In this document: piece by piece, positions 1,517-43,236 of the stretch
How positions within the stretch are numbered: position 1 is the stretch's first letter
How the letters are laid out: each line of letters begins with the position of its first letter
Source of the DNA: Escherichia coli 042
Lineage (GTDB): Bacteria > Pseudomonadota > Gammaproteobacteria > Enterobacterales > Enterobacteriaceae
DNA: 64,000 bases
Assembly (NCBI RefSeq): GCF_000027125.1
Contig: NC_017626.1
Direction: 5' to 3' (one strand)
Translations under genes and position numbers: made by a program
Notes under the pieces: generated by a model
What the model saw: only the letters and a program-made list of their open reading frames with translations
What the model was told of the DNA's origin: nothing
Databases searched by the model: none

Positions 1517-1562
1517 CTTAAGTTCTCTGTAACAGGTGGTTATAAAGGGGAGATATCCGGTG

Positions 1563-1940: not shown

Positions 1941-2019
1941 GATAAAGTCCTCACAGAAAATCGGTTAAGAATGGTCCGGTAGTGGCGATAATTCTGCTCA
2001 TCAGAATTCCCTTCCAGAC

Positions 2020-2241
2020 TCAGTTCAGGGTGACGCTCATCAGCCGGACATACGGACCAAAACTGTCCTTACGGCGTTCTGCAAACACAGCCAGTACACC
2101 GGGAATATCCTGCACTTCACGGCCGGTATATGTATCCGTGCTACCGTGCCAGCGGTATTTACCGGTACAGAACGGAAAAAGACGGGATGCAGGATGCTGA
2201 CGGTGAATACGCATGGCTTCACCACGGGTGATGATTTTCAT
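2020..2241 (-). CDS. yeeT: YeeT-like DUF987 protein
   Basis: 73 aa, MKIITRGEAMRIHRQHPASRLFPFCTGKYRWHG... matches recalled YeeT. Confidence 0.75.
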   Translation of the reverse strand: MKIITRGEAMRIHRQHPASRLFPFCTGKYRWHGSTDTYTGREVQDIPGVLAVFAERRKDSFGPYVRLMSVTLN

Positions 2242-2327
2242 GAGAATAGTCCTCCTGAATGTGAAAGTAAGAAACAGCTGAGAAAGAGAAACTGAAGTGA
2301 TATGAAGGTGATTGTGACGGTGACGGG

Positions 2328-2804: not shown

Positions 2805-2819
2805 TGTGCTTCTCTCCAT

Positions 2820-3293
2820 TCAATCGATGATGCGCATAATGGCGCTGCATTCCGGATGCTGCAGGGCGTAATCCCGCAGCCGGTAATAATGGACCGTCAT
2901 GGCATAACACTCCGTACGACAGGCATGATGACTGTACGTCATCAGACAGGCGGCAATGCCGGCGGCTTCCGGGCTCATTTCAGCGCGGTTACCGTTCATG
3001 GCATTGAACAGTACCCAGTTTTCGCCATCATCGTCATCCGGTTCGGGTGCCATAAATGCCCCGCCGTTGTTCAGGGTGTACAGATTCCAGATACCACCGC
3101 AGTAGTTTTCGCAAAGACGGTCCATCCAGCCGAAGACACGGGGCTCCAGGGTCACCCACTGTGGAATGAGGCCAAAGTGCTGCGGCCAGAAACTGATACG
3201 TTGTTCATCAGGGACGAGGCTGGCAACCAGTTGTTGCAGGTCAGTCTCCGGTGCTGAGACCGAAGAGGTGGTGTTCTGAGACAATGTTTTCAT
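2820..3293 (-). CDS. Antirestriction protein (ArdB/KlcA family, YfjX-like)
   Basis: 157 aa acidic protein (PEPDDDDGENW), recalled similarity to YfjX/KlcA; stop abuts radC-like start. Confidence 0.7.
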   Translation of the reverse strand: MKTLSQNTTSSVSAPETDLQQLVASLVPDEQRISFWPQHFGLIPQWVTLEPRVFGWMDRLCENYCGGIWNLYTLNNGGAFMAPEPDDDDGENWVLFNAMNGNRAEMSPEAAGIAACLMTYSHHACRTECYAMTVHYYRLRDYALQHPECSAIMRIID

Positions 3294-3594
3294 ATGTGAA
3301 ATCCTTGTAGTGTGAATAAATGCGAGGAAGTAAAGGTCGGGTGGCTGATAACATCACGTTCATCACTGACCGTGAGACCCGGTAATATCAGGGATGAATG
3401 ATATTCGGCTGAAATTCCGGACAGCCGTACGCGTAACCGTTCCGGTCACAGACGGATGGCCTGATGCCATTGCCTGTACTCAGTCTGCACAGACTGATTT
3501 CTCCGGGACGGTAAAGCAGACGGGTATACCAGGCGCACAGGTCATCATCAGAAATGGAACGACATCCCGGCAGCGCCTTCAGGGACAGGCTGCA

Positions 3595-4413
3595 TCAGCG
3601 CAGGCTCTCCAGCAGCGTTTCCGCCATCACCCACAATGCGCGGTTGAGCTTAATATCGGTGTCGATGCTGTGAATGGCACGGGTGTGGATACGTTTTCCT
3701 CTGGCACTGCGACCGGAAATCCCGCCTTTCAGCATATTCTCCTGGATGGTCTGATAAGTACTCCACAGGTCCTTACCGTAATCCTCCCTGCGTCGCGGTG
3801 TCAGAATGTCAGCGGTGGTGACGGGCTGATGTTCGTCACCATAACGGTAAGTCAGTGCCGCCTGTGCCAGCGCCTGGCGTGCCGGTGGCGGCAGAATCAG
3901 CGACTGCATGGCATCACGCTTTTCCTCAATCCGGTCAAAAACCCCCACCACCTCGTAAGCCCCTTCAATGACTCTGTCCACCACATTTCCCCGGTGCGGA
4001 ACACGCACTTCCCCCAGAGACTGACCACAGACGCATCCGTTCTGGCAGACGAACCTGAAGTAACCCGGCAGCATCTGGTAGCTGGAGGTACCGTCATGAG
4101 AGTTGAGCAGAATAATTTCAGGGAAATGTTCTCCGTTTATCTCTCCGGCCCGCCGCAGACGCAGCATGTGTTTTGTGTATCCCCGGCGGCCCGGGTCGCG
4201 CACACGGGTCTGGCAGGCGAAGAATGGCTGAAAGCCTTCCCGCTGCAGGCTTTCCAGTACGGTGATGGTGGGGATGTACGTATAGTTCTGGCTTCGGGAC
4301 GTGTGTTTATCTTCCCCGAAAATCCCCGGCACATAGTGCATCAGTTCTTCGTGTGTCAGCGGACGGTCACGGCGTATCTGGTTCGCATAACCAAAACGAC
4401 TGGCTAGTCGCAT
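3595..4413 (-). CDS. DUF932-family protein (YfjQ/YafZ-like)
   Basis: 272 aa; recalled similarity to YfjQ-type proteins of CP4-57-like elements. Confidence 0.65.
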   Translation of the reverse strand: MRLASRFGYANQIRRDRPLTHEELMHYVPGIFGEDKHTSRSQNYTYIPTITVLESLQREGFQPFFACQTRVRDPGRRGYTKHMLRLRRAGEINGEHFPEIILLNSHDGTSSYQMLPGYFRFVCQNGCVCGQSLGEVRVPHRGNVVDRVIEGAYEVVGVFDRIEEKRDAMQSLILPPPARQALAQAALTYRYGDEHQPVTTADILTPRRREDYGKDLWSTYQTIQENMLKGGISGRSARGKRIHTRAIHSIDTDIKLNRALWVMAETLLESLR

Positions 4414-4512
4414 AATTTGCTCCTTATCGGTGGTTAAGATTTACTGGTGTAATAAATGAAAAAGCCACGTCTCCCGGAGAAGACGCGGCCTGATGGGTGA
4501 AATGAATGACGT

Positions 4513-4746
4513 TTATTGTCTGAGAAGACCGTCACTGGCGAGCCGCGTATTAAGCACCTTTCCGGCATCGGGTTCAGAATTCCGGCAGCGCCAGCGTCGC
4601 TGACCTTCCGCGTTGCGGATAACCCGACGGAAATGCATTCCCGGGTCATCCTGGATAAACACATTGCGGTAAGCTGTTATGACAGCAACCGCCTGCCCGT
4701 ATGAGAAAGATCCTTCAGCCAGGACATACTCTGTGTAACCCGGCAT
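4513..4746 (-). CDS. DUF905-family small protein (YkfF-like)
   Basis: 77 aa; ...[29 protein letters not shown]... resembles recalled YkfF motif HFRLVVRD...WRAWNFEPDAG. Confidence 0.55.
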
Positions 4747-7992: not shown

Positions 7993-10900
7993 TCAGAAGG
8001 TCACATTCAGCGTGGCCTGACTGTTATAACCTTCAGCGCTGCTGCCGCTGACGCTGTGGGCATAACCGGCCTGAACGCCCAGGGTGATATTTTCCCGGAC
8101 ACGGGCTTCCAGTCCGGCCTGCAGATCCAGTGAAGTGCCATTCTGTGAGGGAGAGAACGTCATCCCGCTGCCTGCGGTGGAGGTCCCCACACGCATATCA
8201 CCCCGGGAGCTGAAGGTGCGGATAACGGAAGGCTGTACCCACCAGTTCACCGGCAGTTCACGCACACTGTGTTTTGCACTGTCACGCAGGGGGGCACGGG
8301 ATGAGGTGCCTTCACCAAAGGTCATATCGTTGTGGCTGCCCAGACGGAAACCGGCACGCACATGTTGTGCACTGCCATGCCCGAACTTCACATAACCGGC
8401 GTTGTCCTTACCGTCATCCAGCGAAAGCCCCTGCCAGGTGTACTGCAGCCGTGGCTCCAGCATCAGGTTGTCAGTAATACTGAAGGGCAGACCGGTTTCC
8501 AGTGAGCCCAGCCAGCCCCAGCCCCGTGCGCGGAAGTCGTTATTGCCCGATGACGCTTTCATACTGTGGCGGGTTCCCTGTGCCACAATGTCAGCCCACA
8601 GGCCGGAGGAGGTGTGTGTCAGGTTCATATATCCGCCCAGGCTGCCGGCATCATCCCGGACCGTGCCGGCGCGGGAGCCGTCATCATCCTTAACATCAAC
8701 GGAAGAATGGCCTGCAGCACCATACACTCCTGTCGTCAGTGACATACCGGCGACCTCTGTTCTGAGCAGGTCACCCTCCAGACGGACGAAGCCATAGCTG
8801 CCGCTGCTTTCCGGCGTGGCCCCACGGGCAATACCGCCGTTGTTATCGTGACCGAGATGGCCGCCCTGAATGCTGAGACGGACGCTGTTATTTTCACCGT
8901 TTACACCGGTCTGATGGCTGCGTGAGCCTGCCAGAATCCGGTCATAGTCCATTGCCTGTGTCAGCATGGAGGCGTACAGGGGGACTTCAGCACGATAACG
9001 TTCTTCACTGCGCAGATACCAGCTCTCATCACTGTCCCGGTTGAGGGTGTAGTTAAAGGCCCCGGCCTGCAGCATATTCCCCTGGACAAAAGCCCCTTCC
9101 TCCGTGGTGGCACCGTTAATGGCCTCAACCACCTGAATACCCTTACCGGTGGTCGCCAGCCCCGTACCACTGTTGCCGGCGTTCACCAGATTCAGGATGG
9201 TTTTTCCGGTTGCCCTGCCACCGTCAATGACCAGTCTGTCAGCATTGTTCTGCGCCATATCCGGGCGTACACGCAGGCTGATGGTGCCATTCTGCCCGTT
9301 CAGGTTTTTCACCTGCAGGGTTGCCGGTACGAACTTCCCTGTGCGGGTGGAGGTGAAATGAATCTGTCCGGCATGGCTGAGGTCATCCACCACCGACTGC
9401 ACCGTGGCGTTATCAGGGATATTCCAGGTGGCACCGGATGTCAGGGTGACATTCGTGGGGTCAATGGCACCGTTCAGCACTGTGCTGCCGGTCAGCTTCA
9501 GGGCCGTGCCGCGCTGAGCGATGACATCCGTGGTGACGGTACTGTCGTTCAGCGTCAGCGTGCCTTCATTCAGGTTGACGGTTTTCTGGGTGAGTGTGGT
9601 GTTGCTGACAGTGAGTGTGCCACTTCCTGATTTTTCCACCCTGCCGTTACCGGTAAGAGCGCCTCCCTGCAGGAGTGCATCACCTTCACGGATGGTCAGG
9701 GTATCGTTATTCACCGTTTTCCCGGAAAGGGTAAGCGTGGCACCGTTATTCAGCGTGGTGGTGCCCGCCAGCGAGCCCCCTCTGGCAGTGAACAGTCCGC
9801 CATTTACCGTGGTATCCGTGGCCGTATCACCGGCGTTCAGCGTGAATGAACTGCCTTTTTCCAGCATCAGGGCATCCGCCTGACCGCCCCCGATACGGAA
9901 TGCCGTTCCGTCGCTCCGGGTACCACTGACAGCGGCCCCGGAATCGGCCAGCAGTACACCGCCATTCCCCATGGATACGGTGGTGGCGGCACCACCGTTG
10001 CGGACATCCAGCGTTCCGCCATCATCCACACGGGTATTAGTGGCTGTGTGTCCGCTCAGCACATCCAGACGTCCGCCATTTTCCAGTACGACATTATCAG
10101 CCTTACCCGCCAGAACGGAGAATGCTCCCAGGCGGTTTGTGCCGGTGACGGTTGCAGCTGTGCTGGTAACCAGTGCACCTCCCGTGTTCTGGGTGACATC
10201 AGACGCTTTACCGCCGGCATTCACCTGCAGCTTTCCTTTCTGGTTGATGGTGGTATGCGCGGTAGTTCCTCCTTCCTTAATCACCTGCCAGCCCCCCTCG
10301 TTAATTACCGTGTTCAGCGCAAGTCCGTATTTGTGCACATACTGGTTTCCTCCCTCCAGCCGGGTGTTATGTGCCTCGCCGTGTACCGTCTGGTCACCGC
10401 CGGCGTAAATGAGGGTGTCCCGTGCCATCCCCGAAGACCAGATAACCTGCCGGCCATTTTTGTTGATGGTGGTGGATTCAGCCGTCCCTCCGACCATCTG
10501 ACCGCTGGACACATTTTCAGACTCCGGACCACCTTCTGCACCGGTGTTGACGATGGTTCCGGTTGCCTGCCCGCCATGTTTAATGGTCTGGTAGCCAGAC
10601 TGGTTAATCACCGTTCCGGATGCACTGCCGCCTGCATGTATCCATTGTTCACCACCGTTAAGGACAGTACCGTAAGCCTGCCCGCGCAGATTCTGTCCTC
10701 CACCGGCACTGATAACCGTATCCGTGGCACTGCCACCTGCCATGACATCCTGCAGACCGTTTGCGGTGACCGTGGTGTTTCTGGCAGTGCCACCCCGGGC
10801 TATCTGCTGACCGCCGGTGTTGTCATCAGAGTCCGGCCCCAGCTCAAGCCCGGTACTGACAGTCACGCCATCAGCTGTTCCGGATACAAACTGGTTGTCA

Positions 10901-11112
10901 TGGTTTACCAGTGTTCCGCCATTCACTGTTTCACCCGGGTGCACAACGATGTCAGCAGCCAGCACCGGGAGTGACGTGACTGCGGCAAGAGACAGTGCAA
11001 CCGCCACACCGCCACGTTTACCCCGTGCGCGGGCCAGTTCGGAGGCAACCACGAAAGCGCCCGTAATGTGATTCCATACCAGCCTGTAGCAGGTATTCAG
11101 ATGTCGTTTCAT
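7993..11112 (-). CDS. flu: Antigen 43 self-associating autotransporter adhesin
   Basis: N-terminus MKRHLNTCYRLVWNHITGAFVVASELARARGKRGG (extended signal peptide), repetitive beta-helix passenger, C-terminal beta-barrel ending ...TLNVTF; start taken at second Met (1039 aa). Confidence 0.9.
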   Translation of the reverse strand: MKRHLNTCYRLVWNHITGAFVVASELARARGKRGGVAVALSLAAVTSLPVLAADIVVHPGETVNGGTLVNHDNQFVSGTADGVTVSTGLELGPDSDDNTGGQQIARGGTARNTTVTANGLQDVMAGGSATDTVISAGGGQNLRGQAYGTVLNGGEQWIHAGGSASGTVINQSGYQTIKHGGQATGTIVNTGAEGGPESENVSSGQMVGGTAESTTINKNGRQVIWSSGMARDTLIYAGGDQTVHGEAHNTRLEGGNQYVHKYGLALNTVINEGGWQVIKEGGTTAHTTINQKGKLQVNAGGKASDVTQNTGGALVTSTAATVTGTNRLGAFSVLAGKADNVVLENGGRLDVLSGHTATNTRVDDGGTLDVRNGGAATTVSMGNGGVLLADSGAAVSGTRSDGTAFRIGGGQADALMLEKGSSFTLNAGDTATDTTVNGGLFTARGGSLAGTTTLNNGATLTLSGKTVNNDTLTIREGDALLQGGALTGNGRVEKSGSGTLTVSNTTLTQKTVNLNEGTLTLNDSTVTTDVIAQRGTALKLTGSTVLNGAIDPTNVTLTSGATWNIPDNATVQSVVDDLSHAGQIHFTSTRTGKFVPATLQVKNLNGQNGTISLRVRPDMAQNNADRLVIDGGRATGKTILNLVNAGNSGTGLATTGKGIQVVEAINGATTEEGAFVQGNMLQAGAFNYTLNRDSDESWYLRSEERYRAEVPLYASMLTQAMDYDRILAGSRSHQTGVNGENNSVRLSIQGGHLGHDNNGGIARGATPESSGSYGFVRLEGDLLRTEVAGMSLTTGVYGAAGHSSVDVKDDDGSRAGTVRDDAGSLGGYMNLTHTSSGLWADIVAQGTRHSMKASSGNNDFRARGWGWLGSLETGLPFSITDNLMLEPRLQYTWQGLSLDDGKDNAGYVKFGHGSAQHVRAGFRLGSHNDMTFGEGTSSRAPLRDSAKHSVRELPVNWWVQPSVIRTFSSRGDMRVGTSTAGSGMTFSPSQNGTSLDLQAGLEARVRENITLGVQAGYAHSVSGSSAEGYNSQATLNVTF

Positions 11113-11294
11113 CAGCATTTCCTTAATCAGAGTGAGGGTGAATAAAAAAGCCGGTATCCACAGATGTGGATACCGGCAGGTAAAGGGTTACAGTGCCGGA
11201 GGTCCGGCTGACGGAAGTTTCTGACGTGTGGCTCTGTTGTTCCCTGAATCTCATGTCTGTGTGTATCTGCGCACGTTGCTAACAGGAGTTATTA

Positions 11295-11345
11295 TTAGCA
11301 TGACGATCGATATAAACGATCGATAAAATAGGTATCGATCGTTTT
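11295..11345 (-). promoter_or_regulatory. agn43 phase-variation switch: three closely spaced GATC sites (Dam/OxyR region)
   Basis: Sequence acGATCgatataaacGATCgataaaataggtatcGATCg ~190-230 bp upstream of the flu start codon; protein binding not testable from sequence. Confidence 0.65.
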
Positions 11346-19890: not shown

Positions 19891-20124
19891 ATGGCAAGGT
19901 CCGATTACGATATTATCAATCTGTCTCTGGAACATGAACTGAATGAGTGGCTGGCAGAGAGAGGTTATGCCGGACTGGTGGATAACCGGAACCGCCTGGC
20001 AGAGGTGGTTACCCGGAAATTGCAGGACAGCTTTTATATCAACGTTTCCTGGGATGCGCTGAACACAGCATACAGTGAACACCCGGAGTGGTTTTCAGGG
20101 CTTGTCTCCGGGGATGAGAATTAA
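19891..20124 (+). CDS. Hypothetical small protein (start uncertain; ORF extends to 19816)
   Basis: ORF only. Confidence 0.3.
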   Translation: MARSDYDIINLSLEHELNEWLAERGYAGLVDNRNRLAEVVTRKLQDSFYINVSWDALNTAYSEHPEWFSGLVSGDEN

Positions 20125-20176
20125 TAAGTGGATTATGCTGCCATCAGGCAATGTGATTGCCGGCAGGGATTTCGTT

Positions 20177-20368
20177 TTATTCTGTTTCTTCCCGGGGTTC
20201 GGGTTTGAATTTTCCCAGGAAGTTGTACATCGGTCGCATGCAGGGATGCGGATAGCCGTCCCGCATAAACACCACCCGGGTTTCCTCAACACTGGTCACG
20301 GTGACAAGCGCACCATGATCGTCTCTGTATCGCTGATTGATTTTCGGTAATGGAATATCTTCTGACAT
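20177..20368 (-). CDS. Small hypothetical protein (DUF4222-like suspected)
   Basis: 63 aa ORF MSEDIPLPKINQRYRDDHGALVTVTSVE...; family from memory. Confidence 0.4.
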   Translation of the reverse strand: MSEDIPLPKINQRYRDDHGALVTVTSVEETRVVFMRDGYPHPCMRPMYNFLGKFKPEPREETE

Positions 20369-20764
20369 AGATTTCAGAACGGTAACAGTTAACTAAATTT
20401 TCATGTGGTAGCACTGAATCAGGAGTCTCTGCCTCCTGATGTGTTTTGTTAATCTTCTGTTTTTACTAGAAATCCCCTCACTCCTTCTTTCATTGCATTT
20501 TGTTGGGCCCTTCCTCCATATCTTTCCCGCTTTCCAGAAATCACGTCAATGCTGCTGAAACTTTACTCATTGTGATTTTCAATGACTGAAATCAAGAAAA
20601 TACAGTGTTTATGTTAACTGGCTGTATCAAAAGTGTTTTGTGGAATAATTTTCTGTATTTTTACATTAACAATGGTTATAAGCTTTGAATATTCATTATT
20701 TTGCGACATTCCATAGAATAAAGTCCTGATTATTTGCATTATATCGATCGATGTATCTGTTATA

Positions 20765-20800
20765 TTGAGATTTTTCAGATCTTCGTCCTATAATGATCAA
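20765..20800 (+). promoter_or_regulatory. Putative sigma70 promoter of the T6SS operon with GATC sites and Fur-box-like sequence over the -10
   Basis: ttgaga (-35-like), ~18 bp spacer, tataat (-10) followed by aatGATCaaaattaa; further GATC at ~20746 and ~20778; ~75 nt upstream of tssB; coordinates approximate. Confidence 0.5.
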
Positions 20801-20874
20801 AATTAAATCAGTGCACAAGGGGAGGCATCTGCGGTGATGGAACCCCTGAGATGCAGGTTTCACAGGAGAGAGCC

Positions 20875-21372
20875 ATGAGCAGTTCGTTTCAGAATGAAAT
20901 CCCGAAAGCAAGGGTAAATCTGAAATTAGACCTACATACGGGTGGTGGGCAGAAGAAAGTGGAGCTTCCGCTCAAACTTCTGGTTGCCGGTGATTTCAGT
21001 AACGGACAGGAAGAGCGTCCACTGTCAGAGCGTGTAAAAACGGATATTAATAAAAACAATTTTAATGATGTTCTGGCAGATATCTCCCCGTCTGTACATC
21101 TGAATGTGGAGAACACGCTTGCCGGTGATGGCTCTGAAGAGAGCATCAGCCTGACTTTCCGCAATATGAACGATTTCACGCCAGAGCAGGTCGCCCGACA
21201 GATTCCCCGTCTTAAAGCCATGCTGGCCATGCGTAGCCTTCTGCGGGACCTGAAAGCCAATCTGCTGGATAACGTGACTTTCCGTAAAGAGCTGGAAAAA
21301 ATTCTGCGTGACCCGGCACTGAGTCAGACGCTGCGTGATGAACTGCGTGCACTGGTGCCGGAAAAGGCGTGA
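20875..21372 (+). CDS. tssB: T6SS contractile sheath small subunit TssB (VipA)
   Basis: AGGAGA RBS before internal ATG; KARVNLKLDLHTGG...ELPLKLLVAGDFS sheath small-subunit pattern. Confidence 0.9.
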   Translation: MSSSFQNEIPKARVNLKLDLHTGGGQKKVELPLKLLVAGDFSNGQEERPLSERVKTDINKNNFNDVLADISPSVHLNVENTLAGDGSEESISLTFRNMNDFTPEQVARQIPRLKAMLAMRSLLRDLKANLLDNVTFRKELEKILRDPALSQTLRDELRALVPEKA

Positions 21373-22953: not shown

Positions 22954-24291
22954 ATGAAGATTTATCGCCCATTATGGGAAGACGGGGCTTTTCTGATGCC
23001 CCAGCAGTTTCAGCAGCAGGCTGCCTGGGATGTTCATCTGGCAGACAGCGTTGCCAGAATGGGGCTGGCGCATCCATGGGGCGTGGTGGCTGCAGAGTTT
23101 GATGACTCTCTGTTACCGCTTTCACGGTTGAATGCCACCCGTCTGATTGTTCGTTTCCCGGACGGAACGCTTATTGATACGGAACGCGCGGATAATCTGC
23201 CTCCGGTCTGTGATTTATCGACGGTTTCTGATCGTTCCCTGGTGGATATTGTGCTGGCACTACCGTTACTGAATGCTAACGGTGGCAACCTTGATAATGG
23301 CAGTGAGAGCGAGCGTCCGCGTCGCTGGAAATCAGAAAGGGTGAATGTGCAGGAGCTGGCCGGGCATGAGCAAAGCGAAGTGGCGGTATTGCGGCATAAC
23401 CTGACTCTGCGCATGGCTCATCAGGAAAATGCTGCCTGGCTGACCTGTCCCGTTACCCGTCTTGTTCGTGATGCACAGGGACAGTGGTGCAGGGACCCGC
23501 GTTTTATTCCCCCTCTGCTGACGCTGTCTGCCAGTCCTTCGCTGATGACTGAACTTGCGGAGTTGCTTCATCACCTGCAGGCGCGTCGCCAGCGACTGAT
23601 GTCCATGCGTCGGGAGAACAATGCCCGTCTTGCGGATTTTGCTGTGGCGGACGTGTCGTTGTTCTGGTTGCTGAATGCCCTGAACAGTGCGGAGCCTGTT
23701 CTGAAAGAGTTGCTTGACATGCCTTACCGCCACCCGGAACTGTTGTACAGGGAGCTTGCCCGGCTGGCAGGCTCCCTGCTCACATTCTCGCTTGAGCATA
23801 ATGTGGATGCGGTTCCGGCATACCATCATGAAACACCTGAAAATGTTTTCCCACCATTGCTTTCTTTGCTGAACCGGCTGCTGGAGGCAAGCCTGCCTTC
23901 CCGTGTGGTTTTCATTGAACTGAAACAAAAGGGTGTGATGTGGGAGGGGGCATTACATGATGCGCGTCTGCGCGAAGGGGCTGATTTCTGGCTTTCAGTG
24001 CGCTCTTCCATGCCCGGGCATGAACTGCAGACGAAGTTTCCGCAGCTATGCAAAGCCGGGAGCCCCGATGATGTGTCTGAGGTGGTGAATGTGGCGCTGA
24101 GCGGGGTCATTATCCGTCCGGTTACGCATGTACCGGCGGCCATTCCGCTCCGGCTGGAAAACCAGTATTTCGCGCTGGATTTAAGTACGGATGCGGCCCG
24201 GGCGATGCTGGACGCGGGGCGTTGTACTTTCTACACCCCGGCATCGCTGGGAGATGTGAAACTGGAACTTTTTGCGGTGCTGCGGACATGA
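22954..24291 (+). CDS. tssK: T6SS baseplate subunit TssK
   Basis: MKIYRPLWEDGAFLMPQQFQQQ N-terminus typical of TssK; 445 aa. Confidence 0.88.
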   Translation: MKIYRPLWEDGAFLMPQQFQQQAAWDVHLADSVARMGLAHPWGVVAAEFDDSLLPLSRLNATRLIVRFPDGTLIDTERADNLPPVCDLSTVSDRSLVDIVLALPLLNANGGNLDNGSESERPRRWKSERVNVQELAGHEQSEVAVLRHNLTLRMAHQENAAWLTCPVTRLVRDAQGQWCRDPRFIPPLLTLSASPSLMTELAELLHHLQARRQRLMSMRRENNARLADFAVADVSLFWLLNALNSAEPVLKELLDMPYRHPELLYRELARLAGSLLTFSLEHNVDAVPAYHHETPENVFPPLLSLLNRLLEASLPSRVVFIELKQKGVMWEGALHDARLREGADFWLSVRSSMPGHELQTKFPQLCKAGSPDDVSEVVNVALSGVIIRPVTHVPAAIPLRLENQYFALDLSTDAARAMLDAGRCTFYTPASLGDVKLELFAVLRT

Positions 24292-24941
24292 ATAAACCTG
24301 TTATCTCCCGGGCTGAACAGATTTTTTATCCCGGCTGGCTGATGGTCAGCCAGCTGCGCAGCGGGCAACCGGTTGAGGATGGTAAGGCCCTGTATCGCCG
24401 TGCCTGTCAGCTGGTGAAACAGGCGCGTGAAGAGCTGGCCGAAGCAGGATTCAGTCAGAAAAGCAGTGACATCATGTTGTATGCCTTCTGCGCCCTGCTG
24501 GACGAGAGTGTACTGAACCGCGAAAAAACAGACGATGGCTGGCGCACCTGGCAGCAGGACCCGCTGCAGGCTCATTTTTTTGGTACGCTCAATGCCGGTG
24601 AAGAGCTCTGGGAGCGTATTCGTGAACAACTGAAATTACCAGCGCCGGATGTGGCGGTACTGACATGCCTCTGCCGTACGCTTCAGCTCGGTTTTACCGG
24701 TCAGTACCGGTCGCAGGATGATGAGCGTCGCGAAGATGTAATACGCGCACTGACAGCGCGTGTTCCTGCATTTACTTTCGCACAGGATGCGCCGGTGGTG
24801 GTGCGTGCACCGGGTTACCGTGCTGGCAGAACGATGTACTGGTTGTCATGGGGGGCGGGTATTGTGACGCTGGCTGGTCTCTGGTGTGTGCTTTCTTCTG
24901 TGCTTGCAGACCAGGTGGCACGGCTTACCGGGCAGGGATAA
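24288..24941 (+). CDS. tssL: T6SS membrane subunit TssL (DotU-like)
   Basis: ATGA overlap with tssK; cytoplasmic DotU-like domain plus one C-terminal TM helix (WLSWGAGIVTLAGLWCVL). Confidence 0.85.
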   Translation: MNKPVISRAEQIFYPGWLMVSQLRSGQPVEDGKALYRRACQLVKQAREELAEAGFSQKSSDIMLYAFCALLDESVLNREKTDDGWRTWQQDPLQAHFFGTLNAGEELWERIREQLKLPAPDVAVLTCLCRTLQLGFTGQYRSQDDERREDVIRALTARVPAFTFAQDAPVVVRAPGYRAGRTMYWLSWGAGIVTLAGLWCVLSSVLADQVARLTGQG

Positions 24942-24943
24942 CC

Positions 24944-26674
24944 ATGCACGTACGTTCCCGTCTCTGGCTGACAATACTGAGTCTGTTCCTGACACTGTGG
25001 CTGATTTCGGGATTCCTGCCGCTGTCTGCAGTAAACCAGATAATACTGACCCTGGTTTCAGTTGTGGCGGCGGGGCTTGTGCTGTGGTACCAGTGGCGTT
25101 GTCTGTCTTCCCGTCGTGATATCCCGGAGAAGGCCGGCGATGACGGTCTGCCGCCTGAGTATTTTCAGGGACATGTGCTGCTTGTTGCCGGAAACTCAGA
25201 TGCGTGGTTCGAACCCGGTCAGGCATACCGGGAAACAGCATCGGGATGGTATCTTCGTGTGGATACGCCGGAGCAGATGAGAATACTGGCAGAACGGTTG
25301 TCGTACAGCCGTCCGGCCCTGTGTGGCCAGGTCGTGGTCATGCTGGGACTTTTACCGGAGCAGCATACCTCAGATGAAGCTTTCCTGTCGTGGTTGCGGA
25401 ACTGGCAGCGTGCAGTCATGCAGTGCCGGCAGTGGCTGAATACCACGCCACCGGTGCTGGTTACATTGATGGTTTCAGAGCCGTCACCACAAAACACATC
25501 CTTAAATAAGCACTCTACACACTGGTTTACACTGACACCGGACCTGCCGGGAATGCATATACGCCTGACGGAAGCCGGAGCAATTCCGGCAGAGGAATGG
25601 CTGCAGGCGTGTGATGCAGCGTCCAGGCTCCGGTGCGTCAGTGAACTGTTATGGCTGAATGCCATGTTGTCCTGGTACAACCGGGTTACTGATGCCCTGA
25701 CAGCTATTTGCCGGCAGGAGCACTTTTATTTCCGGCCGGTTGCCGTTGGATTCTGTCTGACGTCGGTTGCGGCCCGCCCCGGTAATCTCTGGCAACAACA
25801 ACTGACGTCCCTCACTGCATTGCCACCGCCTGCCGGCGTGTCATCACAGGTATTGCCGTTGCCGGATATTCTGCTGTCCGGTATTCCCCGTCATCGTGGA
25901 CTCAGTCACTGGCACAGACTTTGTCGCCAGACGGGGGCGATTGTCGGTGTTTTTCTTCTGCTGGCTATGCTGGCGTCTTTTATGAATAACCAGCGGCTGG
26001 TTCGCAGCGTGGGGGAACACCTGACGGCCTGGCACCGGATGCGCGGATATTCATCTGAATCGAAAACAACAGCACTGCAACGTCTTCAGGCTGACAGCCA
26101 GTTACTGAACGACTGGCAGCAACGTGGTGTGCCACAGCGTTACGGACTGGGATTGTATCAGGGAATGTGGCTGATACCGCCGGTTGAGCGTGCGACTGGT
26201 GAGTGGGTTGCACCACGGCCTCCCCGTCCGGTGATACAGAAAGTTACTCAGACGCCGAAAACGGTTCGCCTTAACAGCCTGGCACTGTTTGATGCCGGTA
26301 AATGGACGCTGAAGCCGGGCGCCACAAAATGGCTGGTGAATGCCCTGGTGGATATTAAGGCAAAAGCAGGCTGGCTGATTGTGGTCAGTGGTCACACGGA
26401 TAATACCGGTGACCCGCTGCGCAACCAGGCCTTGTCCCTGAAGCGTGCAGAGGCCGTTCGCGACTGGATGCGGGATACCGGCGATATTCCCCAAAGCTGT
26501 TTTGCCGTACAGGGATACGGTGAAAGCCGCCCTGTGGCCCCGAATGACACGGCGGAAGGCCGTGCGCGTAACCGCCGTGTTGAAATCAGTCTGGTACCGC
26601 AGGCCGATGCCTGTCGTCTGCCGGACGTTTCCCCTGCGCCGGAAGAGGGCGCATCAGAAAACATAACGGAGTAA
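24944..26674 (+). CDS. tagL: TagL-like T6SS accessory membrane protein with C-terminal OmpA-type peptidoglycan-binding domain
   Basis: N-terminal TM helices; C-terminus VSGHTDNTGDPLRNQALSLKRAEAV...NRRVEI is the OmpA/MotB motif; position after tssL as in EAEC Sci-1. Confidence 0.78.
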   Translation: MHVRSRLWLTILSLFLTLWLISGFLPLSAVNQIILTLVSVVAAGLVLWYQWRCLSSRRDIPEKAGDDGLPPEYFQGHVLLVAGNSDAWFEPGQAYRETASGWYLRVDTPEQMRILAERLSYSRPALCGQVVVMLGLLPEQHTSDEAFLSWLRNWQRAVMQCRQWLNTTPPVLVTLMVSEPSPQNTSLNKHSTHWFTLTPDLPGMHIRLTEAGAIPAEEWLQACDAASRLRCVSELLWLNAMLSWYNRVTDALTAICRQEHFYFRPVAVGFCLTSVAARPGNLWQQQLTSLTALPPPAGVSSQVLPLPDILLSGIPRHRGLSHWHRLCRQTGAIVGVFLLLAMLASFMNNQRLVRSVGEHLTAWHRMRGYSSESKTTALQRLQADSQLLNDWQQRGVPQRYGLGLYQGMWLIPPVERATGEWVAPRPPRPVIQKVTQTPKTVRLNSLALFDAGKWTLKPGATKWLVNALVDIKAKAGWLIVVSGHTDNTGDPLRNQALSLKRAEAVRDWMRDTGDIPQSCFAVQGYGESRPVAPNDTAEGRARNRRVEISLVPQADACRLPDVSPAPEEGASENITE

Positions 26675-26679
26675 TTTTT

Positions 26680-27171
26680 ATGGCAATTCCAGTTTATCTG
26701 TGGCTGAAAGATGATGGCGGTGCAGATATCAAAGGGTCCGTGGATGTTCAGGACCGTGAGGGCAGCATTGAGGTGGTGGCTCAGGAGCACTGCCTCTACA
26801 TCCCGACGGATAACAATACCGGTAAGCTGACCGGTACCCGTATTCACACGCCGTTTCTGTTTACCAAGGAAATTGATTCTTCCAGCCCGTACCTTTACAA
26901 GGCCGTGACCACCGGGCAGACCCTGAAGTCTGCTGAGTTTAAGTGGTACAAAATCAATGATGCCGGTCAGGAGGTGGAGTATTTCAATACGAAGCTTGAG
27001 AACGTGAAGGTGGTGAAGGTTAACCCGGTCATGCACGACATCAAGAATCCCGCTTACGAGAAGCATAACCACCTTGAGCAGGTGGAACTGCGCTACGAGA
27101 AAATCACCTGGACTTACAAGGACGGCAACATCATTCATTCCGACGCATGGAGTGAGCGTACCACCGCGTAA
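26680..27171 (+). CDS. hcp: T6SS tube protein Hcp (TssD)
   Basis: MAIPVYLWLKDDGGADIKGSVDV... canonical Hcp N-terminus, 163 aa. Confidence 0.92.
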   Translation: MAIPVYLWLKDDGGADIKGSVDVQDREGSIEVVAQEHCLYIPTDNNTGKLTGTRIHTPFLFTKEIDSSSPYLYKAVTTGQTLKSAEFKWYKINDAGQEVEYFNTKLENVKVVKVNPVMHDIKNPAYEKHNHLEQVELRYEKITWTYKDGNIIHSDAWSERTTA

Positions 27172-27179
27172 TTCTGCCG

Positions 27180-27216
27180 GACGGACAGGGCATCCTGTCC
27201 GTCATTTTTATTTTTT
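27180..27216 (+). terminator. Rho-independent terminator downstream of hcp
   Basis: Perfect 10-bp stem gacggacagg/cctgtccgtc with 4-nt loop followed by atttttatttttt. Confidence 0.65.
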
Positions 27217-27339
27217 CTTCAGCATCTGTTGGCGGGTGCTGAAGAAAGAATTCTCAATCCTGAACACAGACCTGATGCGCCTGGGTTACGGCGAAGGGCG
27301 GTAGCGTGCCTGACGGTCTCCTGACAGTGAGTGAATAAC

Positions 27340-29997
27340 ATGGAAAATTCGGCAGCCCTGTTACGTCGTCTTAATCATTACTGTGCCCGTGCACTGGAAG
27401 GCGCAGCCTCCCTTTGCCAGACCCGGGCCCATGCGGAAATCACCCCGGAGCACTGGTTACTGAAACTGCTGGAGCAGGGGGAAGGAGACCTTACCGTGCT
27501 GGGCAGGCGTTATGACTGGGATATGGACGCGATATGGCAGTCGCTGCTCGGCTGGCTGGATAACCAGCCCCGTAGCGTACGCAGTCGCCCGCAGCTTGCG
27601 CAGTCCCTGAATGCTCTGCTGAAACAGGCCTGGATGGTGGCCTCATTACAGGGAGAAGAACATATCCGCAGCGTGCATCTGCTGGGTGCCCTGACGGAAA
27701 ATCCGCACCTGGTTCGCTGTGACGGGCTGTGGCCTCTGCTGACACTGAGTCAGAGCCAGTTGCAGCGTCTGTCCCCGCTGCTGGATGCGCAGTCTGATGA
27801 GTGTCCGGAGACGTTACAGGATGCAGAGCCTGTGCTGCCTCAGGGAGACAGTGTGACCTTTATCGGGCGCCCTGTCGGTGCGGATACGGCAGGTATACCG
27901 TCAGGTGACCTGCCGCCGGTGTTACAGGGTGCGCTGGATAAATTCACCCGGGACATCACGGCCAGCGCGAGAGAGGGGAAAATTGACCCGGTATCGGGAC
28001 GCGATACGGAAATCCGTCAGATGGTGGATATTCTCTCCCGCCGTCGCAAGAATAACCCGATTCTGGTGGGGGACCCCGGTGTGGGGAAAACGGCTCTGGT
28101 GGAAGGGCTCGCCCTGCGTATTGTGGAAGGTAACGTACCAGAATCTCTCAGACCCGTCACCCTGCGCACCCTTGACCTCGGCCTGCTGCAGGCCGGTGCC
28201 GGCGTGAAAGGTGAATTTGAACAGCGTCTGAAAAACGTGATTGATGCCGTGCAGCTGTCACCGGCTCCTGTACTGCTGTTTATAGATGAAGCCCATACCC
28301 TTATCGGTGCCGGTAATCAGGCCGGTGGCGCGGATGCGGCCAACCTGCTGAAGCCTGCGCTGGCGCGAGGCGAACTGCGCACCATTGCTGCCACCACCTG
28401 GTCTGAGTACAAACAATACCTGGAACGTGACGCGGCTCTGGAGCGGCGTTTTCAGATGGTCAAAGTGGACGAGCCGGATGATGAGACGGCCTGTCTGATG
28501 CTGCGCTCCCTGAAATCCCGTTATGCGGAACATCATAACGTGCATATCACCGATGAGGCAGTACGTGCTGCCGTCACACTCTCGCGCCGTTATCTGACAG
28601 AACGTCAGTTACCGGACAAGGCCGTTGACCTGCTTGATACTGCTGCTGCCCGTGTGCGGATGAGCCTCGACACGGTGCCGGAACAGCTGACCCGAATCCG
28701 TTCACAGCTCGCTTCCCTCGGTATGGAAAAACAGGCACTGCTGGAAGATATTGCCGTTGGTCATCAGAATCACGGCGAACGCCTGTCTGCCATTGAGCAG
28801 GAAGAGAACGTGCTGATGACAGCACGTGATGACCTGGAGCAGCAGTACGCCCGTGAGTGCGAACTCACCGGTGAGTTACTTGAAAGCCGCAGCGATATTT
28901 CCCGCCAGAGTGAGACACATCACCTGCAGCAGGCACTGCACGACATTCAGCAGAATCAGCCCCTGCTCAGTGTGGATGTTGACGTACGCACCGTTGCCGG
29001 TGTGGTCGCGGACTGGACCGGAGTGCCGTTATCCTCACTGATGAAGGATGAACAGACGGAACTGCTGCATCTGGAAAAGGATATCGGCAGACGGGTGGTC
29101 GGACAGGACGTGGCACTGGAATCCATTGCACAGCGTCTGCGTGCGGCGAAAACGGGTCTGACATCCGGTAACGGCCCCCAGGAGGTGTTCCTGCTGGTCG
29201 GCCCCAGTGGTGTGGGAAAAACCGAAACGGCACTGGCGCTGGCAGATGTGATGTACGGCGGCGAAAAATCACTGATTACCATCAATCTGTCGGAATATCA
29301 GGAGCCCCATACGGTTTCCCAGCTTAAGGGTTCACCGCCCGGGTACGTGGGATACGGTCAGGGGGGTATTCTGACGGAAGCTGTACGTAAGCGCCCTTAC
29401 AGCGTGGTGCTGCTGGATGAAGTGGAAAAGGCCCACCGGGATGTGCTGAATCTGTTCTACCAGGTGTTTGACCGGGGCTTTATGCGCGACGGTGAGGGGC
29501 GTGAAATTGACTTCCGTAATACGGTCATTCTGATGACCTCCAATCTGGGCAGTGACCTTCTGATGCAGCAACTGAGCGAAAAGCCGGAGACAACGGAATC
29601 GGAGCTGCATGAGCTTATCCGTCCACTGCTGCGCGACCACTTCCAGCCAGCACTGCTTGCCCGTTTCCAGACCGTGATTTACCGTCCGCTGACACCGTCT
29701 GCTATGCGCACCATTGTGGAGATGAAGCTTGCACAGGTCTGCGAACGCCTGCACTGCCATTATGGGCTGAGCACATCGGTTGATGAACGTGTGTACGATG
29801 CCCTGACATCCGCCTGCCTGCTGCCGGATACGGGCGCCCGGAATGTGGAGAGTCTGCTGAACCAGCAACTGCTGCCGGTACTGAGCCGGCAGTTGCTGAG
29901 CCATATGGCCGCGAAGCAGAAACCGCAGGCGCTGGCTCTGGCATGGAGTGACGAAGACGGTATGGTGATTGAGCTGCGGCAGGAATGCGCGTTATGA
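27340..29997 (+). CDS. clpV: T6SS AAA+ ATPase ClpV (TssH); alternative GTG start at 27331
   Basis: Two AAA modules with Walker A GDPGVGKT and GPSGVGKT; Clp N-domain; 885 aa. Confidence 0.92.
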
Positions 29998-30560
29998 CCG
30001 GCTATGGCAGAAATCAGGACGCTGGCGCAGGTAAAAATCAAAGGGAAGAAGGCTCATTGCGGTTACTGACGCCGGGAGAGATTGCGCTGGCGAGGCTGGT
30101 ATTCAGGTTGACAATCCCTTATGAAAAGGTCTGGATCCACCATGACAGTTTTCTGCCTTTTGGTCTTCAGAATAAGCAAACTGCCATGCCCCCCGATGGT
30201 AAGATTTATTTCCGTGAGCACTATCGGGATGATTATTCACTCAGCGTTCCCTTTTATCAGCATATGTTTATTCATGAAATGGCGCATGTCTGGCAGCGTG
30301 AAAAGGGAATGAATGTCATCGGTCGGGGGATGTTCAGTTGGGCGGTGAATTACCGTTATGTTCTGGACGGGCGTCTGTTAAGCGAATATCCCATGGAGCA
30401 GCAGGCACAAATTATTGCTGATCATTTTACTTTGCAGGCTGAAGGATACGGGACATGGTGTGATATGAGAAGGGACGGTGATATCACACTGGACGGAAAT
30501 ATGTCTGAGTATGTTATTCGCAGCCTGTATACCAGCACGTTGCGGGGGTTCCCATGGTAA
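29994..30560 (+). CDS. HExxH zincin-like protein (DUF4157-like), candidate T6SS-associated effector or accessory protein
   Basis: Motif FIHEMAHVWQ preceded by VWIHHD and GKIYFREHY; start overlaps clpV stop (also possible at 29985). Confidence 0.5.
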   Translation: MTGYGRNQDAGAGKNQREEGSLRLLTPGEIALARLVFRLTIPYEKVWIHHDSFLPFGLQNKQTAMPPDGKIYFREHYRDDYSLSVPFYQHMFIHEMAHVWQREKGMNVIGRGMFSWAVNYRYVLDGRLLSEYPMEQQAQIIADHFTLQAEGYGTWCDMRRDGDITLDGNMSEYVIRSLYTSTLRGFPW

Positions 30561-38255: not shown

Positions 38256-41200
38256 ACTGGCCTGTCTGTCTGGTCGCTTTGGGCGACCGGGGATTGTATT
38301 TATTGGTGTGGCTGCGCTCTGGTGGCTGATAACCCGATATGGAGCATATCTGGGGGCAGAAACACGCCGGGATCAAATACTACTGCTGATATTGCTGAGT
38401 CTGGGGGTGCTCTTTGTCTGTTACCTGCCTGTGATGAAAAAATATGTTCAGGAACTGACATATCGACGCAGGGCCCGTAAGGAGCAAAGGTTACCTGACG
38501 ATGAAGAGCGATTGGCTCAGACGCCACCGCGCTATGTTACTGTTCAGGATATTCGTCATACTCTGCGGCGCCAGTATGGCAGATTCTGGGGACGTAAGAT
38601 ACGCATTCTGTTGATAACAGGTACCGCCTCTGAGGTTGAGTTGTTGACCCCGGGCCTGACAGAACAGTTCTGGCAGGAAGAGCAGGGGACATTGCTTCTC
38701 TGGGGAGGAGACCCCTCGCAGCCGGAAAACGCAGACTGGCTGGCTGCGTTACGCCGTCTGCGTTACCGGCCTGCTGATGGCATTGTCTGGGTAACTTCCG
38801 GACTGAGTGAAACATTATCCGCACCACTGACAGAAGATGCCCTGGACAGGGTTTCCCGTGCGGTCAGTTCATGTTGTGAGCGCCTTGGCTGGCGTCTGCC
38901 GCTGTATGTCTGGTCACTGCAGGAGAGTCCGGATGAGCGAGGGCGTATTACTCAGCCCGTGGGATGCCTTCTGCCAGCAGAATGTAGTTCTGACAAACTG
39001 AAAGCACAACTACAGGCCATGCTCCCCGGGCTTGTTGCTCAGGGGATACAGCAGATATGCTGTGCCCCTCGGTATTATTTTTTGTTGTCGCTGGCAGAGC
39101 GATTCAGACGAAATATTGATGCTGTGGTGGAGCCATTATCCGTATTACTCCGTCCATACCGTCAGTTGTTGCTGGCGGGTATTGTTTTCAGTCCGGCAAC
39201 TGTCGGCGGTGAACGAAGTGTCAGACATCGCTGGCGAATGGATAACCGCTGGGAGGCGTTGCCGGAGACAGTGCAGCAATTACCTGTCCGGCTACAGCCT
39301 TCCCGCACAGGTCATAACTGGCGCAGAAGTCTGGCCGTTATGGCGGCCATACTGATGATGGCTCAGGGAACAGGAATGGTGGTTTCCTTTCTGGCAAACC
39401 GGAGTCTGGTTGCTGAAGTACAGGAACAGATTCGTCCGGCTCAGAACCAGCAACTGTCTCCTGCAGAACGTCTGCAGGCGTTGCTGAATCTGCAGAAATC
39501 CCTGGCCCGCCTTCAGTACCGGGAGGAGCACGGGGCGCCATGGTACCTGCGGGCCGGTATGAATCAGAATGCAGACCTGCTCGCGGTCGTAATGCCCCTT
39601 TATGCACAAAATGCACATCTTTTACTGCGTGATGCCGCTGCTGCTCATCTTGAGCAGCAGCTCAGGACATTTATTCGTCTTCCTCCGGACAGCCCGCAGC
39701 GGGGGAAAATGGCAAAAGCCGCATATGACCAGCTCAGACTGTATCTGATGCTGGCGCAACCGCAACATATGGAGCCCGCCTGGTTCAGTCGTACGCTCAT
39801 GCGGGAATGGCCACAGCGTGACGGTGTGAGTGCCGTTTTCTGGCAGGCTAATGGCCCGACGTTGCTGGCGTATTATGCCTCCGGGATTATTACTCATCCT
39901 CAGTGGAAGCTGACGGCTGATGAAGAGCTGGTCAGCCAGAGCAGAACTCTGCTGCTTCGCCATCTGGGAACACAGAACAGCGATGCCATGCTGTATCAGA
40001 AAATGCTGGCACGGGTGGCACATCAGTTTGCGGATATGCGTCTGACGGATATGACCGGTGATACTGATGTCTCCCGCCTCTTTTTTACGGATGAAGTGGT
40101 TCCCGGTATGTTTACCCGCCAGGCCTGGGAAGAGGCCGTATTGCCGTCGATAGACACCGTGATTAATGAGCGTCGTGAAGAAATGGACTGGGTACTGACG
40201 GATGGCAGGCAGAAGGCACCGTCACCGGTATCGCCGGAAGCACTCAGACAGCGCCTGACAACGCGCTATTTTGCTGATTTTGGTAATGCCTGGCTGAATT
40301 TTCTGAACAGTCTGCACTTGCGTAAAGCTCAGACGCTGTCTGATGTGACAGAGCAACTGACGCTTATGGCTGATGTGCGCCAGTCCCCCCTGGTTGCTCT
40401 GATGAATACGCTGGCGGTTCAGGGGTGTACTGGCCAGCCCCGGGAAGCGGTTACTGATTCACTGGTTAAATCTGCCAGAAACCTGCTTTCACAGGAAAAA
40501 CAGCCAGTGGCAGTACCGGAAAGCCGGCTTCACGGTCCTCTGGCGACGACTTTCGGGCCGGTGCTTGCACTGATGGATAATCAGAACAACAGTGCGGATA
40601 TGCTGAATCTGCAGACATATCTGACCCGGGTGACACAGGTTCGTCTGCGTCTGCAACAGATTGCCGGCTCTTCTGACCCGCAGGCCATGATGCAGTTGCT
40701 GGCACAGACAGTATTGCAGGGGAAATCGGTTGATTTAACCGATACCCGGGATTACGGCAGCCTGACCGCTGCCGGACTCGGACAGGAGTGGTATGGCTTC
40801 GGACAGACGGTCTTTGTTCGCCCGATGGAGCAGGCGTGGCAGCAGGTTCTTACGCCCGCGGCAGAAAGTCTGAATGCCCGGTGGCGTACTGCGGTGGTGG
40901 ATGGCTGGAATAATGCATTTTCCGGGCGTTATCCGTTTAAAAATGTCAGCAGCGATGCTTCGCTTCCCCTGCTGGCAAAATACCTGAATACGGACACGGG
41001 ACGTATTGCCCGTTTCCTGCAGAATAACCTGAGTGGTGTGTTGCACAGGGAAGGCAGTCGCTGGGTACCTGATACCATTAATACCCGGGGACTGACATTC
41101 AACCCTGCGTTTCTGAAAGCCATCAATACCCTGAGTGAAATAGCGGATGTGGCGTTCACCACAGGTAACGCGGGGCTGCATTTTGAGCTGCGCCCGGGAA

Positions 41201-43235: not shown

Positions 43236-43236
43236 G

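Follow-up and report, generated by a model that had tools for sequence, protein, structure and literature searches.

The window, the whole 64,000-nt stretch of E. coli 042 DNA analyzed here, carries the Sci1 T6SS-1 cluster on its plus strand (20875–47706, delimited from annotations of identical or near-identical loci). Its genes run in the order tssB, tssC, tssK, tssL, tagL, hcp, clpV, two small ORFs (at the positions of EC042_4531 and EC042_4532), vgrG, tle1, two copies of tli1, a PAAR gene, a hypothetical gene, tssM, tssA, a second hypothetical gene, tssF, tssG, tssJ, and tssE. Annotation of the 99.8%-identical locus of strain 55989 identifies the effector-region genes as Tle1-EAEC and two Tli1-EAEC genes. 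The window also holds the start of the AggR-dependent sci2/aai cluster. The first gene of Sci1, tssB (sciH; 20875–21372, plus strand, from the ORF list and the RefSeq annotation of the 55989 locus), is preceded by a Shine–Dalgarno sequence, AGGAGA (20864–20869, plus strand), and a 506-bp intergenic region separates its ATG at 20875 from a minus-strand DUF4222 gene (20177–20368). The GC content of this region is 0.36, compared with 0.50 for the window, and it contains the promoter that drives the cluster.

Promoter elements upstream of tssB

A promoter scan located a −35 hexamer, TTGAGA (20765–20770, plus strand; termed putative in PMC3145626), and a −10 hexamer, TATAAT (20789–20794, plus strand), separated by an 18-nt spacer. 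The near-consensus pair that an earlier sequence-only reading had placed upstream of tssB thus scores 11/12 against the sigma70 consensus (20765–20794). No other site in the window, whichever strand is read, reaches 11/12; first-order Markov simulations yielded 0.77 ± 0.84 such matches per window. The element aatGATCaaaattaa (20792–20806) contains a GATC (20795–20798) that directly abuts the −10 hexamer. This site, GATC-I or G1, borders the −10 on its 3′ side and is part of the BclI palindrome TGATCA (20794–20799). The two further GATC sites reported nearby are also present: GATC-II or G2 (20778–20781) in the −35/−10 spacer, within TCAGATCT (Hpy188I/BglII), and GATC-III or G3 (20746–20749) upstream of the −35, within ATCGATCGAT (BspDI/PvuI). 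Together, the three span 53 nt. A more distant site ("GATC-dis") occurs at 20317–20320. Four GATC triplets spanning at most 53 nt were found in the window, against 0.55 expected when its 129 sites were placed at random (P(≥4) = 0.007), and known Dam switches account for two of the four.

Two Fur boxes flank the −35 element. F1 (fur1), TATAATGATCAAAATTAAA at 20789–20807, covers both the −10 hexamer and GATC-I and matches the consensus GATAATGATAATCATTATC at 13/19 positions; it corresponds to the Fur-box-like sequence that had been noticed over the −10, and it is identical to the published fur1 oligonucleotide. F2 (fur2), CCTGATTATTTGCATTATA at 20725–20743, lies upstream of the −35, matches at 11/19 positions, and was absent from the earlier reading. 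Boxes were scored by consensus match, as in the source paper. On this scale the 13/19 match of F1 is weak on its own: the window contains 25 matches of at least 13/19, and 28% of shuffled versions of the AT-rich 506-bp intergenic region yield one or more matches of 13/19 or better. Sequence statistics therefore do not establish a Fur box, and the F1 call is made because of its position over the −10 and the published binding of Fur to this exact sequence. Taken by itself, the sequence suggests the architecture without proving it.

Transcription probably starts near 20801, judging from the position of the −10, which gives a putative 5′ UTR at 20801–20874 (plus strand). In the published descriptions, too, the −35, the −10, and the start are putative. 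Its predicted fold (minimum free energy −23.6 kcal/mol) was not significant (z = −0.53) and an Rfam search returned no family, so a riboswitch or structured RNA in this leader was rejected. A search of the 64-kb window for a second copy of the promoter found none.

Identity and behavior of the published sci1 promoter

In the work of Brunet et al. (2011, PLoS Genet; PMC3145626), the sci1 promoter is contained in a 596-bp fragment with a 13/19 Fur box (fur1) over the −10, an 11/19 box (fur2) upstream of the −35, and three GATC sites over 53 nt, each embedded in a 6-nt palindrome. In the window this fragment occupies 20297–20892 on the plus strand, −578 to +18 relative to the sciH/tssB ATG. Both cloning primers, Prom sci1-5 (20309–20333) and Prom sci1-3 (20866–20892), are perfect matches, and the Fur-box oligonucleotide inserts align without mismatch at 20722–20746 (F2) and 20786–20811 (F1). 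With the fragment starting at 20297, the methylated adenines at positions 22, 451, 483, and 500 (Fig S1, PMC3145626) map to 20318, 20747, 20779, and 20796, the first of them belonging to the distal GATC. The fragment outside the primers was compared through the published restriction map, whose BspDI/PvuI, BglII/Hpy188I, and BclI palindromes are all found in the window.

The mutagenesis primers of strain 17-2 (Taillefer et al. 2026, PLoS Biol; PMC13262931) tile 20719–20826 and match the window apart from the designed changes, namely A>G at the three GATC adenines (A20747 in the G3 primer) and TTA>GGG in F1 and F2 (20739–20741 in the 5-F2 primer). The reverse primer 3-G1, as listed, has one extra mismatch at 20805, which we read as a listing typo, since the forward 5-G1 primer does not share the change. 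Identity to EAEC strain 55989 at this locus is 99.8%, and the window matches E. coli chromosomes at 99.8–100% identity. The promoter core of 55989 differs at a single position (C for T at 20762), where the 17-2 primers carry the T of the window. Downstream, a sci2 promoter primer matches at 60656, and aaiA starts at 61076, 40,201 bp from the start of sciH, a distance that agrees exactly with the coordinates stated for 042 in the Methods of PMC3145626.

Because the primers, oligonucleotides, GATC map, and sciH–aaiA distance all match, the window holds the characterized locus, and the flagged stretch is, on sequence grounds, the published Psci1 itself rather than a look-alike. It shares with Psci1 of EAEC 17-2/042 the position upstream of tssB/sciH, the −35 and −10, F1, F2, the three GATC sites with their palindromes, the distal GATC, and a cluster carrying tle1/tli1, with no difference across the core (20719–20826). 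The resemblance to the EAEC sci-1 Fur/Dam switch that had been proposed was therefore an understatement. This switch is already known: its first description dates from 2011, an extension from 2020, and the demonstration of bistability from 2026. Its recovery serves as a positive control, in that a reading of raw sequence without tools found an experimentally validated epigenetic switch.

In a published transposon screen of ~20,000 clones on Psci1 only fur insertions were recovered, and fur::Tn10 insertions derepressed the promoter fusion ~25-fold; dipyridyl also induces it, and expression in LB is low (PMC3145626). FURTA and EMSA, the latter metal-dependent, show binding of Fur to the entire promoter and to either box separately, and in a competition assay Fur lowers the binding of RNA polymerase (PMC3145626). 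Fur shields GATC-I from Dam in vitro and in vivo (BclI protection) while GATC-II and GATC-III are unprotected; mutation of fur or addition of a chelator leads to methylation of GATC-I, and methylated fur1 binds Fur less well in EMSA (PMC3145626). These methylation data were obtained with a plasmid-borne promoter. In the resulting model iron turns the promoter OFF, methylation of GATC-I stabilizes ON, and the return to OFF combines iron with replication (PMC3145626). In strain 17-2 under iron limitation, ON and OFF subpopulations coexist and are heritable and reversible, and chromosomal point mutations in G1, G2, G3, F1, and F2 alter their ratios (PMC13262931). The GATC A>G mutants G1, G3, and G123 have lowered or abolished expression; G3 and G123 are homogeneously OFF, whereas mutation of the Fur boxes shifts the balance to ON, and in the F2 point mutant prey killing occurs even in LB (PMC13262931).

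We consider it very probable that 20725–20807 is the Psci1 core and that this sigma70 promoter of Sci1 acts as a Fur/Dam epigenetic switch. When iron is present, Fur-Fe would occupy both F1, which overlaps the −10, and F2, on the upstream side of the −35, exclude RNA polymerase, and shield the GATC-I adenine (A20796) from Dam, leaving the promoter OFF. When iron becomes scarce, Fur would depart, the cluster would be transcribed, and Dam would methylate GATC-I, whose methyl group would lower the affinity of Fur for F1 so that the ON state persists. ON would end once iron-replete cells replicate their DNA and it becomes hemimethylated. With iron limiting, competition between Fur and Dam would then generate coexisting, heritable, and reversible ON and OFF subpopulations, in a ratio that GATC-III and F2 would strongly shape. 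The mutual-exclusion architecture of Dam phase-variation switches is present here, as GATC-I lies within F1, and the exclusion itself has been published (PMC3145626). The iron- and methylation-dependent bistable expression anticipated in the earlier reading has been published for 17-2 on identical sequence; by that identity with the 17-2 promoter, the strain of the window would be expected to switch in the same way. Neither fur nor dam lies within the window. To our knowledge, both genes are universal in E. coli.

Variation within E. coli and related promoters in other genera

A 241-bp promoter query matched 1,551 of 5,426 complete E. coli genomes, with coverage of both the promoter and the tssB start in only 195. 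In the two partial-coverage matches examined (ETEC4090 and O157:H7 strain 7636), homology stops ~10 nt past F1; both retain the promoter and lack the 32-kb cluster at this position. In ETEC4090, the promoter is followed by ~275 bp of unrelated DNA and then by a VasL pseudogene corresponding to 53193–53378 of the window. Extrapolating from these two matches, an orphan promoter appears to be present in about a quarter of complete E. coli genomes.

Where the cluster is intact, the promoter region diverges faster than the genes it precedes. In one variant it was 87.8% identical to the window, compared with ~97% for coding DNA. Conservation within the region was uneven. The −10/F1/GATC-I block was invariant at 19/19 positions in four of five E. 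coli variants; the −35 and the G2 and G3 tetramers were invariant in all intact variants sampled, as were 65/67 positions of the 5′ UTR among four variants. F2 was poorly conserved (11/19 positions invariant, 58%), and distal positions of the promoter region were 62–65% invariant. An extra GATC at the 5′ edge of F2 (AAAGATCTG) occurs in the other four intact variants sampled and not in the EAEC type. The one variant whose −10/F1/GATC-I block differs, from a deer isolate (strain 48), carries GGGTG in place of GATCA (TATAATGGGTGAAATTAAA), which removes GATC-I; the cluster therefore does not strictly require the switch. The invariant F1/GATC-I core in a fast-diverging intergenic region, the variant lacking GATC-I, and the orphan copies all bear on how the switch evolved.

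Beyond E. coli, we scanned one genome per species and obtained 80 loci with TssB 72–83% identical. In 35 of the 80, a common scaffold, TTGAT[C/T/A], an 18-nt spacer, and TAnnAT, lies ~65 nt upstream of tssB. Among 34 dereplicated loci, GATC sites recur at −42 (9 loci), −35 (22), −22 (20), and −11 (12; 13/35 before dereplication) relative to the −10, and scaffold loci average 1.85 GATC per locus against 0.40 expected. Promoters of Enterobacter, Citrobacter, S. enterica subsp. arizonae, Cedecea, Kosakonia, and other Enterobacterales resemble Psci1 in their TTGAnn −35, 18-nt spacer, and CTAnnAT −10, and both groups carry GATC sites at the G3 and G2 positions. They differ from it in their distance to tssB (~65 nt, compared with 86 nt in the window), in lacking F1 and GATC-I, and in carrying extra GATC sites at −35 and −22. 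Where E. coli has F2, they have a conserved element, AAAATTCTTAAGAA, with the RcsB-box-like TAAGAAnnTTCTTA. None of the other-genus scaffold promoters has a Fur box of at least 13/19 over the −10 or a GATC at +6; their best Fur matches there were 7–11/19, and such a box was rejected for these promoters. The comparison suggests that F1 and GATC-I may be an addition of the E. coli lineage to an older, GATC-bearing scaffold.

A stronger version of this idea competes with the Fur/Dam account. The older scaffold, with its GATC sites fixed at about −42, −35, −22, and −11 beside the AAAATTCTTAAGAA element, could itself be Dam-sensitive and common to many Enterobacterales T6SS clusters, the E. coli Fur/GATC-I switch being a lineage-specific add-on; we regard this as rather improbable. 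If true, T6SS heterogeneity that depends on methylation would be common, with non-Fur regulators reading it, and the cross-genus scaffold bears in any case on whether Dam-dependent T6SS heterogeneity reaches beyond EAEC. For Psci1 it would mean that bistability arises mainly from a family-wide module of GATC sites in the −35 and spacer or upstream of them, read by a non-Fur factor, with F1 and GATC-I as a later iron gate, a reading to which we likewise give a low probability. In its favor, G3 (−43) and G2 (−11) of the window coincide with family GATC positions in the 35/80 loci that share the scaffold, Fur matches over the −10 in those 35 do not exceed 11/19 and all 35 lack a +6 GATC, and the homogeneous OFF and ON phenotypes come from G3 and F2 rather than from G1 (PMC13262931). 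The context of G3 also shares a 14-nt identity (TTATATCGATCGAT) with the K-12 agn43 OxyR operator, a length reached in 1 of 300 shuffles, although a match to the OxyR consensus is not evident by eye. Against it, the −22 site is simply part of the TTGATC −35 hexamer, and the loci are phylogenetically related, so their counts are not independent. The published data also account for G3 via F2 and Fur.

The AT-rich composition of the intergenic region raises a different possibility, that Psci1 is chiefly an island promoter silenced by H-NS/Hha, with Fur and Dam as secondary modulators. An hha gene lies 4 kb upstream in the same island and the promoter is weakly expressed in LB (PMC3145626), both of which fit such silencing. 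The ~20,000-clone transposon screen, however, yielded fur insertions only, with ~25-fold derepression (PMC3145626), and a point mutation in F2 suffices for prey killing even in LB (PMC13262931); we therefore judge silencing to be a very unlikely primary mechanism. Plain Fur repression, in which the GATC sites are incidental and expression merely tracks iron, is also very unlikely. A box over the −10 would be enough to repress, and the 2011 paper took iron as the controlling input and reported no subpopulations (PMC3145626). The published GATC point mutants contradict this reading: expression is reduced or lost in G1, G3, and G123, the last of which is homogeneously OFF (PMC13262931). In addition, methylation reduces Fur binding to F1 in vitro (PMC3145626), and E. 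coli variants keep the GATC positions unchanged amid diverging flanking bases.

Other Dam-associated elements and GATC-poor stretches in the window

Systems comparable to the Fur/Dam switch at Psci1 occur both inside and outside the window. An internal Fur/Dam promoter of the sci1 cluster, P4532, was described by Brunet et al. (2020, J Bacteriol), here known as cited in PMC13262931. We found a candidate for it at 30411–30429, where a Fur-like sequence (ATTATTGCTGATCATTTTA, 12/19) is accompanied by a GATC in TGATCA and followed 125 nt downstream by the ORF at 30554, which occupies the EC042_4532 position. P4532 reportedly differs from Psci1 in lying within a coding region and in driving the downstream part of the cluster, including the immunity gene tli1. 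A GATC triplet at the 5′ end of tssF (44021–44066) was also considered as a Fur/Dam promoter; it lies in GC-rich coding sequence, its best Fur match is 10/19, and it found no support.

The window further contains the OxyR/Dam switch of agn43, with GATC sites at 11305, 11318, and 11337 (11305–11340) spaced as in K-12 and overlapped by the IsrC/IS102 RNA. The agn43 GATC sites lie downstream of the transcription start. Like Psci1, the agn43 (flu) switch is a repressor operator with three GATC sites at which the repressor blocks Dam, methylation blocks the repressor, and ON and OFF states are heritable. The repressor is OxyR rather than Fur, however, the sites lie ~200 nt upstream of the start codon, and switching is stochastic rather than iron-gated. 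The Lrp/Dam system of pap pili likewise sets a regulator against Dam at promoter GATC sites and uses the methylation pattern as a memory through replication, but it has two GATC sites ~100 bp apart, cooperative Lrp/PapI binding, and no metal-sensing input. Compared with agn43/OxyR and pap/Lrp, Psci1 is a distinct variant in which switching is gated by iron through Fur (PMC3145626, PMC13262931).

At the scale of the whole window, GATC sites are half as frequent as a first-order model predicts (129 compared with 259 ± 15) and very patchy. Five stretches are free of GATC (366–4708, 8128–11304, 23234–30133, 38375–44020, and 46388–54277), each with 10–27 sites expected; the longest simulated gap was 3.0 kb. 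Shuffling of synonymous codons indicated that avoidance is gene-specific. It was marked in agn43 (1 observed, 9.7 expected), clpV (0 and 8.3), tssM (1 and 6.1), and tssA (0 and 5.3), and frequencies were normal in tssC (11 and 9.8), tssF (10 and 11.6), and vgrG (9 and 11.1). If the older promoter scaffold were indeed Dam-sensitive, the 6.9- and 7.9-kb GATC-free stretches in the E. coli cluster could share its methylation biology, as opposed to being a by-product of horizontal transfer.

A separate origin of the GATC-containing genes (tssC, tssF, tssG, and vgrG) was unsupported, as their GC content, GC3, and depletion of CTAG, CCTA, and CCAA are broadly similar to those of the other genes. GC3 was 0.58 in tssC and 0.52–0.54 in tssF and tssG, compared with 0.52–0.67 in GATC-free core genes, and somewhat lower (0.48) in vgrG. 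Genes with and without GATC sites are uniformly ~96–99% identical to the variants; in the GATC-free genes the E. coli variants are 1–6% diverged, too close to inform on ongoing selection against GATC. Forde et al. (2015, PMC4659465) reported GATC-free regions of at least 1 kb enriched in genomic islands; the longest case cited until now measured 4,082 bp. Since GATC-free island regions were already described there, the stretches in the window are an extreme instance of a known, unexplained phenomenon. The same GATC pattern is common to two other E. coli T6SS-1 variants and, in K-12, to flu and yeeS–yeeW.

Known and probable Dam-dependent control sites

A region with three GATC sites at 11305-11340 (minus strand), upstream of the agn43 coding sequence (7993-11112, minus strand), is the agn43 OxyR/Dam phase-variation operator. 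Its GATC spacing (19 and 13 nt) equals that of the K-12 flu (agn43) locus, and a minus-strand match to the IsrC/IS102 sRNA (11137-11342, 255 bits) overlaps it. The window thus contains two Dam-dependent switches, and probably three. A further site lies at 30411-30429, where a Fur-like box, ATTATTGCTGATCATTTTA, matches 12 of the 19 consensus positions and carries a GATC inside a BclI site. The box is located 125 nt upstream of the open reading frame at the position of EC042_4532, and its GATC is among the first two after a 6.9-kb stretch devoid of such sites. It is a likely candidate for the location of P4532, the published internal Fur/Dam promoter of the sci1 type VI secretion (T6SS) cluster.

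The sci1 promoter upstream of tssB (Psci1) shares sequence with the agn43 operator. Around its GATC-III site (20739-20752, TTATATCGATCGAT), 14 nt coincide exactly with the context of the promoter-proximal GATC in the K-12 operator (about 21340-21355 of that locus, L011); for the agn43 copy in the window itself, the identity extends over 12 nt. An identity of 14 nt with the K-12 operator was attained in just one of 300 shuffles. Inspection by eye revealed no evident match to the OxyR consensus at the GATC-III context; the identity may stem from a Dam-refractory flank common to both sites, or from a factor that acts at both.

GATC-free stretches and gene-level avoidance

The whole window contains 129 GATC sites, compared with 259 ± 15 expected. 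Five stretches lack the motif entirely (366-4708, 8128-11304, 23234-30133, 38375-44020, and 46388-54277), with 10-27 sites expected in each. GATC-free regions in genomic islands have been described previously, with a cited example of 4,082 bp (Forde et al. 2015, PMC4659465); stretches in the window, such as those of 6.9 kb and 5.6 kb, exceed that length. Avoidance differs gene by gene at the synonymous level. It affects agn43, tssB, tssK to clpV, tssM, tssA, tssJ, tssE, and the GIY-YIG nuclease and exonuclease genes; in tssC, tssF, tssG, vgrG, and a yeeR-like gene, the number of sites is normal. The same pattern is seen in K-12 flu and in other E. coli T6SS-1 variants. Directly after the 5.6-kb stretch, the 5′ end of tssF carries three GATC sites within 46 nt (44021-44066), in GC-rich coding DNA where the top Fur match reaches 10/19.

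Variants of the sci1 promoter

Among 5,426 complete E. coli genomes, about 1,350 align with the query over its promoter portion alone. Both partial-match genomes examined, ETEC4090 and O157:H7 strain 7636, lack the 32-kb sci1 cluster and keep the promoter, including the F2 Fur box region (20725-20743), GATC-III, GATC-II (20778), the -10 element, and the F1 Fur box with GATC-I (20789-20807). These orphan copies, compared with window positions 20037-20812 and 53193-53378, have an ancestral-looking GATCATTATTCTATAAT spacer. The ETEC4090 junction falls ~10 nt beyond F1 and is followed by a VasL pseudogene remnant. The deer isolate E. coli strain 48 has GGGTG in place of GATCA at the positions aligned to 20795-20799, and the remaining core is conserved. 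GATC-I is therefore lost and F1 weakened, which makes this variant of the intact promoter a natural GATC-I mutant. Its tssB contains four GATC sites, versus none in the window.

Across 35 T6SS loci from other Enterobacterales (among L013-L092), an element AAAATTCTTAAGAA(T/A)TTTC is conserved upstream of the promoter, between positions -70 and -57 as counted from the -10 element. It occurs in Enterobacter, Citrobacter, S. enterica subsp. arizonae, Cedecea, Kosakonia, and others, and encloses an RcsB-box-like TAAGAAnnTTCTTA, whereas E. coli has F2 at this position. About 350 nt upstream of the Psci1 -35 element, a plus-strand terminator-like hairpin (ATCAGGAGTCTCTGCCTCCTGAT then GTGTTTTGTT, 20418-20450) could insulate the promoter against plus-strand transcription from upstream.

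Neighbouring T6SS regions

Just downstream of sci1, remnants of another, degraded T6SS occupy 52070-53437 and comprise an ImpA_N pseudogene, a ShlB/FhaC fragment, and a VasL C-terminal fragment. The GIY-YIG nuclease and 3′-5′ exonuclease genes between these remnants and sci1 are also GATC-free. The sci2/aai T6SS follows at 60655-61121 and 61076-64000, with a match to the published sci2 promoter primer at 60656 and aaiA (tssB2), aaiB, and aaiC/Hcp2 downstream of it. This region is AT-rich (about 40% GC) and has an ordinary GATC density.
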